Of a stretch of 44,189 nucleotides of DNA, positions 39,057 to 39,235 are shown one piece after another. Every line of letters begins with the position of its first letter. The stretch's first letter is position 1. The notes under the pieces are model-generated. The model saw only the letters and a list, made by a program, of their open reading frames with translations. It ran no database searches and was not told the origin of the DNA. The position numbers and the translations under genes are program-made. The stretch comes from Escherichia phage JohannBuxtorf_Bas84. The stretch lies in the sequence record PQ850611.1. One strand, given 5' to 3'.

Positions 39057-39235
39057 TTATTGCATAAAGTAGGCGGGACAGAAAGCGGGACAAACATGAG
39101 GCGGGACAAAGCGGGACAGCACCCCCGTCCCGCCACGGATGGCGCGGCCTGGAGGGGAGCGGGACAGCGGGACAGCACCCCCAGTCTTTCAGACTAGACG
39201 GGGGTCAATGGCCCCCCTCGTCTGAGACTGAATAA
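39057..39235. repeat. structured non-coding element copy B: CGGGACA direct-repeat array plus 60-bp hairpin module
   Basis: 6 direct GCGGGACA (39073, 39085, 39101, 39111, 39159, 39167), inverted GTCCCG at 39127, then a module near-identical to 11561-11620 (one extra C). Confidence 0.85.

Follow-up and report, generated by a model that had tools for sequence, protein, structure and literature searches.

In phage lambda, iterons lie inside gene O, in the linker that follows the N-terminal DNA-binding domain, and the octamer iterons of P4 are divided between ori and a partial partner site, crr, both of which act in cis and lie a few kilobases (kb) apart. Here we describe an element of Escherichia phage JohannBuxtorf_Bas84 (sequence record PQ850611.1), a Dhillonvirus and thus an HK578/SO-1-like E. 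coli siphovirus, in which an array of CGGGACA heptamers is combined with hairpins and an AT-rich block. The whole stretch of 44,189 nucleotides (nt) was analyzed and is referred to below as the window. It contains two copies of the element, region A and region B, and region B follows the gene for a primase-helicase. The sequence comparisons reported here suggest that region B is probably an origin of replication read by that protein.

Several described systems pair an initiator with repeats or hairpins in a related way. The Rep proteins of staphylococcal pathogenicity islands (SaPIs), some of which are fused to a primase, use a C-terminal winged helix to bind six to twelve iterons of 5 to 6 nt located directly downstream of the rep open reading frame (ORF) (PMC9371898). 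Some of the SaPI iterons are opposed and flank a central AT-rich region, their specificity is particular to each lineage, and the Reps themselves are AAA+ proteins of the SF3/MCM type (PMC9371898). P4 alpha unites a primase, a helicase, and a C-terminal winged helix that binds the origin repeats in one polypeptide, and pRN1 ORF904, composed of a prim-pol, a helicase, and a winged helix, has a stem-loop origin 3' of its own gene, an arrangement shared by some phages, such as Bordetella BPP-1/BIP-1 (PMC4234260). At oriV of RSF1010/IncQ, the iterons belong to RepC, RepA is the helicase, and the RepB' primase acts at the ssiA and ssiB hairpins, which are primed once unwound (PMC4234260).

The existence of the Dhillonvirus repeats is already on record, since the GenBank entry of Sodalis phage SO-1 (GQ502199) annotates both places, unexplained, as repeat 'region A' and 'region B'; the proposed function is what is new here. 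Neither a published function for the element nor a report of a Dhillonvirus replication origin was found in the searchable literature.

Region B combines an AT-rich block, a heptamer array, and two hairpins

Region B begins 160 bp past the stop of the primase-helicase gene. The gene, the interval that follows it, and the parts of region B are as follows.

36648..38912, plus strand: primase-helicase gene, 754 amino acids (aa), the proposed initiator reading the repeats
38643..38858, plus strand: predicted C-terminal winged-helix domain, aa 666-737, the proposed iteron reader
38913..39449: gene-free interval of 537 bp holding region B, from the primase-helicase gene to the next plus-strand gene (39450)
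39040..39068, plus strand: conserved AT-rich block, TGAATAGTTATGCAG-N7-TGCATAAA
39073, 39085, 39101, 39111, 39159, and 39167 (starts), plus strand: six direct copies of GCGGGACA
39073..39118, plus strand: first four direct iterons, (G)CGGGACA, at spacings of 12, 16, and 10 bp
39127..39133, minus strand: inverted iteron, GTCCCGC
39159..39174, plus strand: abutting pair of direct iterons, GCGGGACAGCGGGACA
39179..39235 (core 39181-39231): 57-nt module with an imperfect hairpin of ~20 bp

The window holds 13 copies of GCGGGACA against 2.2 expected, and the maximum in 100 shuffles was 6. Most of the anatomy given in an initial annotation of the window was confirmed. All six direct copies were found where it had placed them, as were the 537-bp gene-free interval and the direct repeats and motifs reported within it, namely a 33-nt repeat within or at the edge of the interval (38901-38933 and 38955-38987) and six TTGGTYGC motifs. 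The hairpin module had been called nearly identical to that of region A; over its 57 nt it is 100% identical to positions 11564-11620, with 84% identity over the preceding 86 nt, and the extra C noted in region B is real (GCACCCCC in B, GCACCCC in A). The dyad is also present, with an end that required correction from 39132 to 39133: GCGGGAC (39111-39117) and GTCCCGC (39127-39133) form a 7-bp stem around a 9-nt loop. A 54-bp tandem duplication at the same coordinates (38901-38933, 38955-38987) takes in one TTGGTYGCC site together with the end of the primase-helicase gene, namely its three final codons and the stop.

Both hairpins are stable as single-stranded DNA (ssDNA). The dyad folds at -8 kcal/mol (z=-3.6), and the hairpin of the 57-nt module folds on either strand (z=-4.2). 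The 40-nt stretch at 39020-39059 is 70% AT, with the 99th percentile of the genome at 67.5%, and the AT-rich block at 39040..39068 is a candidate DNA-unwinding or priming region. Regions A and B were aligned from four genomes, and then as 37 unique copies. In the aligned copies, the AT-rich block is followed by four heptamers in direct and one in inverted orientation, and a GC-rich spacer, which varies, separates these from two further direct copies and the hairpin. Among the 37 unique copies, the heptamers and hairpin stems are invariant or nearly so, TGCATAAA is invariant, and the spacers and hairpin loop vary freely; the stems being invariant, these copies allow no assessment of covariation. 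A mechanically called ORF that crosses the array (38970-39197) is unlikely to be coding, given the 1-nt spacer indels between genomes.

The element is conserved across related phages. It was found in all 158 related phage records, at 358 places or about two per genome, and both copies occupy fixed syntenic positions in all relatives. The 57-nt module was confined to contigs of Dhillonvirus size, and neither 5,426 complete E. coli genomes nor the plasmids of PLSDB contained the element.

CGGGACA arrays adjoin primase-helicase genes in other phages

IMG/VR was scanned for three or more close copies of CGGGACA, blind to genes, which returned at least 120 loci with GC contents of 0.34-0.71, 17 of them Dhillonviruses. 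The array lay at most about 60 bp from the stop of an ORF for an AAA_25 (RepA-like) primase-helicase in 26 of these loci, and in 3 more in reversed orientation. The primase-helicases concerned are 600-790 aa long and have an AAA_25 core, a primase domain, and 100-156 extra C-terminal residues. The usual array linked to them consists of five to seven direct copies followed by two inverted copies around a CCCC-TTA-GGGG hairpin.

A second class of loci (n=16) had the array within an ORF for an O/DnaD-like replication initiator, after the N-terminal DNA-binding domain. The 11-nt period of these arrays runs through three frames, which points to a signal at the DNA level. Judged by their sequence and position, the intragenic arrays are probable lambda-type origins. 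They translate in the three frames as linkers rich in RD, GT, and GQ, and in loci L017, L095, L106, L123, L124, L127, L092, L111, L093, and L023 the array comes after a conserved ..ITICNYDKYQ.. motif. The 58 remaining loci were left unclassified, and some of them are plain coding tandem repeats.

The association was also examined in reverse, with 80 loci picked by helicase similarity alone, of which 79 were usable and 69 unique. In the 410 bp around the stop, the top heptamer of the unique loci occurred in a median of 8 copies (range 3-12), compared with control medians of 3 both within the gene and in the 410 bp that come next. A heptamer array adjoined the helicase gene in 64 of the 69. In 40 of the 79 usable loci the word was CGGGACA, most often in six direct copies; the others used CCGGACA, GGGGACA, GGAGACA, CGTGACA, TCCGACA, CATCACA, or unrelated words. 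Identical arrays accompany two unrelated primase folds, Prim-Pol and Zn-ribbon+Toprim, and the primase domain is thus not the reader of the repeats.

The repeat word changes with the helicase lineage

Within the family of the window protein, six related lineages were examined. All except Hrm2 have some 240-650 bp free of genes directly after the primase-helicase stop. The repeat words in these stretches, with protein identity to the window primase-helicase, are as follows.

Dhillonvirus and sister lineage, 67-100%: GCGGGACA
Cornellvirus PhiSTP1, 44%: GGGGAGA, six direct copies and one inverted, the sole cluster in that genome
L143, 49%: TTGCGAGT / ACTCGCAA
L144, 46%: TTGGCAGCA / GCTGCCAA
L145, 47%: TGTGCGGAA / TTCCGCACA

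Five repeat words thus occur in five lineages, and the recognition-helix region of the protein is different in each. The most variable part of the protein is the predicted recognition helix of its C-terminal domain (GGTSTKAIDDMVERGVL, GKGGDRYKILKDLAKRKII, and GGNKFTSGNYKKVLEELVRRRVL, among others). In Cornellvirus PhiSTP1, GAATAGTTATGCAG is kept despite the different iteron. In this Salmonella phage (L007), the equivalent of region B (17008-17160) directly follows the primase-helicase stop, contains two GAATAGTTAT blocks and GC-rich hairpins, and overlaps small ORFs annotated in that record.

The primase-helicase has a predicted C-terminal winged helix

The primase-helicase has a RecA-type AAA_25 core at aa 357-531 (Pfam E=1.2e-19) and a flexible linker, and its N-terminal region is primase-like and contains a Cys/His cluster. 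It matches PHROG 3228, 'replicative helicase-primase', and its homologues form a graded series. A sequence search of the PDB returned RSF1010 RepA (1g8y) alone, as a weak match (E=0.44), and gave no match between the window protein and P4 alpha chains. The helicase core is AAA_25, not of the AAA+ SF3/MCM-like class of SaPI Rep, P4 alpha, and pRN1.

The last 144 residues were modeled with AlphaFold2, which predicted a topology of three helices followed by two strands; the predicted local distance difference test score was 79-89 over most of the core and 75 in the last-strand block. When the model was compared with the PDB by Foldseek, the top matches were all winged-helix DNA binders (MarR family, MepR-DNA, H1, and the ORC winged helix), the best with an E value of 8e-3 and none below 1e-3. 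A single fragment was retrieved when only the C-terminal 140 aa served as the query of a protein search. The model thus predicts a winged helix at aa 666-737, which would be the part of the protein that reads the iterons.

Region A is a complete second copy in the tail operon

Region A lies 27.6 kb from region B, between the T extension of the tail chaperone and the tape measure gene, and not 3' of the proposed initiator gene as region B does. Its parts are as follows.

11383..11404: extra upstream mini-cluster, GCGGGACA-GGCGGGAC/GTCCCG, two direct copies and one inverted, overlapping the last codons of the T extension
11426..11620, plus strand: region A, full second copy of the element
11426-11454: AT-rich block
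11460, 11472, 11488, 11498, 11546, and 11554: CGGGACA
11512: inverted GTCCCG
11564-11620: hairpin module

There are five exact copies of GCGGGACA (11383-11560) and eight CGGGAC cores. The sister lineage (L161), whose primase-helicase is 68% identical, also has region A, immediately before its tape measure gene. Regions A and B of that lineage have lineage-specific variants in common, in the 3' arm of the hairpin and the 18 nt that follow, which indicates concerted evolution of the two copies. The Cornellvirus relative PhiSTP1 has a single array, and in the 46% lineage the gap upstream of the tape measure gene resembled region B no more than shuffled sequences did. On these comparisons, region A is probably an innovation of the Dhillonvirus clade. 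Since it holds every module of region B and the two copies evolve in concert, it is probably acted on by the same protein, and it would serve either as a second origin in its own right or, like P4 crr, as a partner site in cis.

The reading frames next to region A have features of their own. A -1 frameshift heptamer, A-AAA-AAC at 11053-11060, joins tail chaperone G to the T extension (ORFs 10686-11063 and up to 11422), and the final codons of the extension enter the first iterons of region A. Right before the region, the T-extension frame contains a C12 homopolymer (11331-11342) where other Dhillonvirus genomes have TGTCCCGCCCC, an inverted iteron; this homopolymer may be slippage prone or an assembly artifact.

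Region B is probably the origin of the primase-helicase

Because arrays sit 3' of primase-helicase genes in unrelated phages, and because the repeat covaries with the helicase lineage, we think it probable that region B is the cognate iteron origin of the phage's own primase-helicase, with region A as a duplicated second origin or helper site. The initial annotation had named a second origin as one alternative, and it is the one that these two observations favor.

The analysis establishes sequence anatomy, synteny, covariation, and a predicted fold, from which we infer binding, melting, and priming along the following lines. The C-terminal winged helix, placed by the predicted fold at the end of the flexible linker behind the RecA-type core, would bind the CGGGACA heptamers 3' of the gene, as synteny and covariation suggest. 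One hexamer would take up about six direct sites, the number most often found in relatives. Once the duplex opened, the inverted copy and the imperfect 20-bp palindrome might extrude as hairpins, since dyad and palindrome both fold as ssDNA on either strand. The AT-rich block beside the array would melt or be primed, and the N-terminal primase domain would lay the first primer. Synthesis would then pass to the PolA, the Gp2.5-like ssDNA-binding protein, and the exonuclease that the phage encodes on its minus strand.

Several observations weigh against this proposal. When the three DNA-binding domains that accompany CGGGACA, that of Dhillonvirus included, were compared as profiles, no significant homology emerged, and a shared reader thus gained no support. 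A small helix-turn-helix (HTH) protein encoded just upstream (36308-36637) likewise covaries by lineage and may be an alternative reader of the repeats. No array follows the primase-helicase gene in Hrm2 (34% identity), and PhiSTP1 lacks a counterpart to the second copy. The iterons of Dhillonvirus are irregularly spaced (12, 16, 10, 48, and 8 bp), unlike the helical-turn spacing of many relatives. The AT-rich block lies to one side, upstream of the array (39020-39068), and there is only one inverted copy (39127), so that opposed iterons do not flank an AT-rich center as they do in SaPI origins. An origin within a tail operon, as region A would be, is unusual. GC skew tracks gene orientation in the window and gives no origin position.

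More tentatively, the comparisons may extend to a general scheme. The AAA_25 primase-helicase with its C-terminal DNA-binding domain and 3' heptamer array might constitute a widespread self-loading phage replication module, with an iteron code that drifts by lineage; CGGGACA would also be used by O/DnaD-like initiators, and Dhillonviruses would have duplicated the origin into the tail operon and homogenized the copies. No description of such an AAA_25 self-loading module was found in the searchable literature. If the scheme is correct, these are lytic coliphages with two cognate origins or with an ori/crr-like pair.

Alternative explanations for the element

The repeats could instead be binding sites for the primase-helicase or the HTH protein that do not fire, serving in autoregulation, titration, handcuffing, or loading for recombination-dependent replication, with the origin elsewhere, for example, in the divergent control region at ~36.1 kb. 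Synteny and covariation show a protein-DNA partnership and not initiation, and covariation fits such sites equally well. Two sites paired by a multimeric protein recall plasmid handcuffing and the ori-crr pair of P4. The sign of the GC skew changes near 36 kb, but this change coincides with the switch in gene orientation and is therefore no evidence of an origin there. Against this reading, the element also includes a conserved AT-rich block and an invariant hairpin, as a complete origin would, and the arrays within O-like genes are placed as the lambda origin is in gene O. We consider nonfiring sites unlikely, and rate them lower than an origin solely because the element also has the AT-rich and hairpin modules.

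Control of transcription was the function that the initial annotation had put first, as a role shared by both copies late in infection. Here the arrays and hairpin would be activator sites, nut/put-like antitermination sites, an attenuator, or an RNA-processing site for the plus-strand blocks downstream. Both copies do precede such blocks, as had been described, and lie just upstream of them in the transcribed orientation (tape measure and tail genes after A, small genes and lysis after B). Just upstream of region B, an TTGGTTGC motif comes before a TATAAT (39035-39040), the hairpin is stable, and one public record (CS16) tags the dyad 'terminator'. The candidate -10 is, however, not kept in LM40P1 or Ioannina, and consensus scans, which are weak tests, detected neither a sigma-70-like promoter nor a hairpin followed by a T-run at region A or B. 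No Rfam match reached the gathering threshold anywhere in the window. An RNA fold of the whole of region B was no better than that of shuffles (z=-1.6 on the plus strand, -0.9 on the minus strand); only the separate hairpins stand out, as ssDNA. In relatives, the arrays track the helicase gene, whatever class of gene lies downstream; some have a symmetric layout or run opposite to the gene (L098, L079, L077, and L101), and others lie in initiator ORFs in three frames, which marks them as DNA-level signals. Thus, late transcription control gained no support from promoter, terminator, Rfam, or whole-element folding scans, and the further suggestion of a small RNA gained none either. We regard transcription control as the primary function as quite improbable, and a side effect of the element on downstream gene expression as possible.

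An intrinsic terminator was considered and rejected, as the plus-strand scan showed no T/U run, the dyad and the 57-nt module being followed by CACGGATGG and AATAAAATCC. A tRNA scan of the window found nothing.

It is very improbable that the element is a selfish or neutral repeat, resembling a miniature inverted-repeat transposable element or left as a scar of recombination, that the genome has duplicated internally and that does nothing for the phage. Two nearly identical copies 27.6 kb apart, with variants common to both that suggest gene conversion, are what such a repeat would leave. However, both copies are kept in 158 records and in a sister lineage at ~60-68% protein identity, and conservation is patterned, with iterons and stems fixed and spacers and loop free. 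The element has neither terminal inverted repeats nor target duplications, it does not occur in E. coli genomes or plasmids, and homologous single-copy arrays follow the same gene in other genera.

Short repeated motifs are typical of terminase recognition sites (lambda cosB, SPP1 pac), but a packaging or genome-end signal, whether terminase small-subunit repeats, a pac site, or site-specific nicks, is scarcely credible given that the arrays of relatives follow the helicase gene, not terminase genes, and that a cos-like site lies at 44121, far from both copies. This sequence, CCCCTTAGAT at 44121-44130, is located just upstream of terS and resembles the reverse complement of the 10-nt 5' cohesive ends reported for Dhillonvirus EE09, ATCTTAAGGG (PMC10673088); it is likely, from its sequence, to be the cos site.

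Other repeated sequences in the window

The TTGGTTGC motif occurs 21 times in the window against 2.1 expected, mostly in pairs 12-35 bp apart, in intergenic positions and on both strands. Examples are 5792/5806(-), 24835/24847(+), 26499/26516(-), 29404/29416(-), 33214/33230(+), 38925/38979/39014(+), 39387/39418(+), and 42528/42551(-). TTGGTTGCAT often provides a -35-like TTGCAT 16-17 nt ahead of TAnAnT. In the 68% sister lineage (L142, L161), copies of TTGGTTGC likewise lie beside regions A and B, and L143 contains the motif as well. It is probably a phage promoter or operator motif.

A 37-nt leader, TTGGTTGCACACCAAC..GAGGAC..AAATG, is common to two genes on opposite strands (5768-5804, minus strand; 39413-39449, plus strand) and has a small TTGGT/ACCAA hairpin right before the ribosome-binding site. 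Direct repeats of the CTTCGTC type, at 32397-32608 and 35646-35789 in minus-strand genes, are unrelated to the element; those in 35402-36085 encode acidic and lysine-rich repeats (KKEVVEDDDDEAE).

Significance and comparison with known systems

Dhillonviruses are common model and therapy-candidate coliphages, several of which are in the BASEL collection. A defined origin with its cognate initiator would provide engineering handles, such as minimal replicons and plasmids that carry the origin to titrate the initiator. Paired with a small variable winged helix, the heptamers of the different lineages would offer a natural series for the study of coevolution in protein-DNA recognition. The second full copy in the tail operon raises the question of multiple origins in small lytic phages and of the interplay between replication and late transcription. 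A short-repeat array 3' of an AAA_25 primase-helicase gene could also serve as a criterion to annotate candidate origins in uncultured phage contigs.

The window protein would be functionally akin to the SaPI Rep, P4 alpha, and pRN1 systems and lies outside their protein family. The likeness to SaPI Rep is found in a proposed initiator that would itself be the replicative helicase, in the putative winged-helix reader, in iterons downstream of that protein's own ORF, and in lineage-specific repeats. The Dhillonvirus system differs in its AAA_25 helicase, its mostly direct heptamers, its lateral AT-rich block, and its conserved GC-rich hairpin, and it has two full copies where SaPIs have one ori. 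P4 alpha is a Toprim primase with an SF3 helicase, and region A, in contrast to the partial crr of P4, is a complete copy 27.6 kb off, in the tail operon. With pRN1, the Dhillonvirus element shares a location directly 3' of the gene for the replication protein; however, pRN1 has an SF3 helicase, no iterons, and a stem-loop that alone is required, whereas in Dhillonvirus iterons dominate and the hairpin is one module of several. RSF1010 resembles the present system in its RepA-type helicase and in the presence of iterons and hairpins together, but it uses three separate proteins and ssi hairpins on opposite strands, while Dhillonvirus has one fused protein and, in each element, one palindrome that folds on both strands. 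The arrangement of ori-lambda is shared by the CGGGACA arrays in O/DnaD-like genes; the Dhillonvirus element itself is intergenic and would be served by a helicase-fused initiator, in contrast to an O-type protein that recruits the host helicase.

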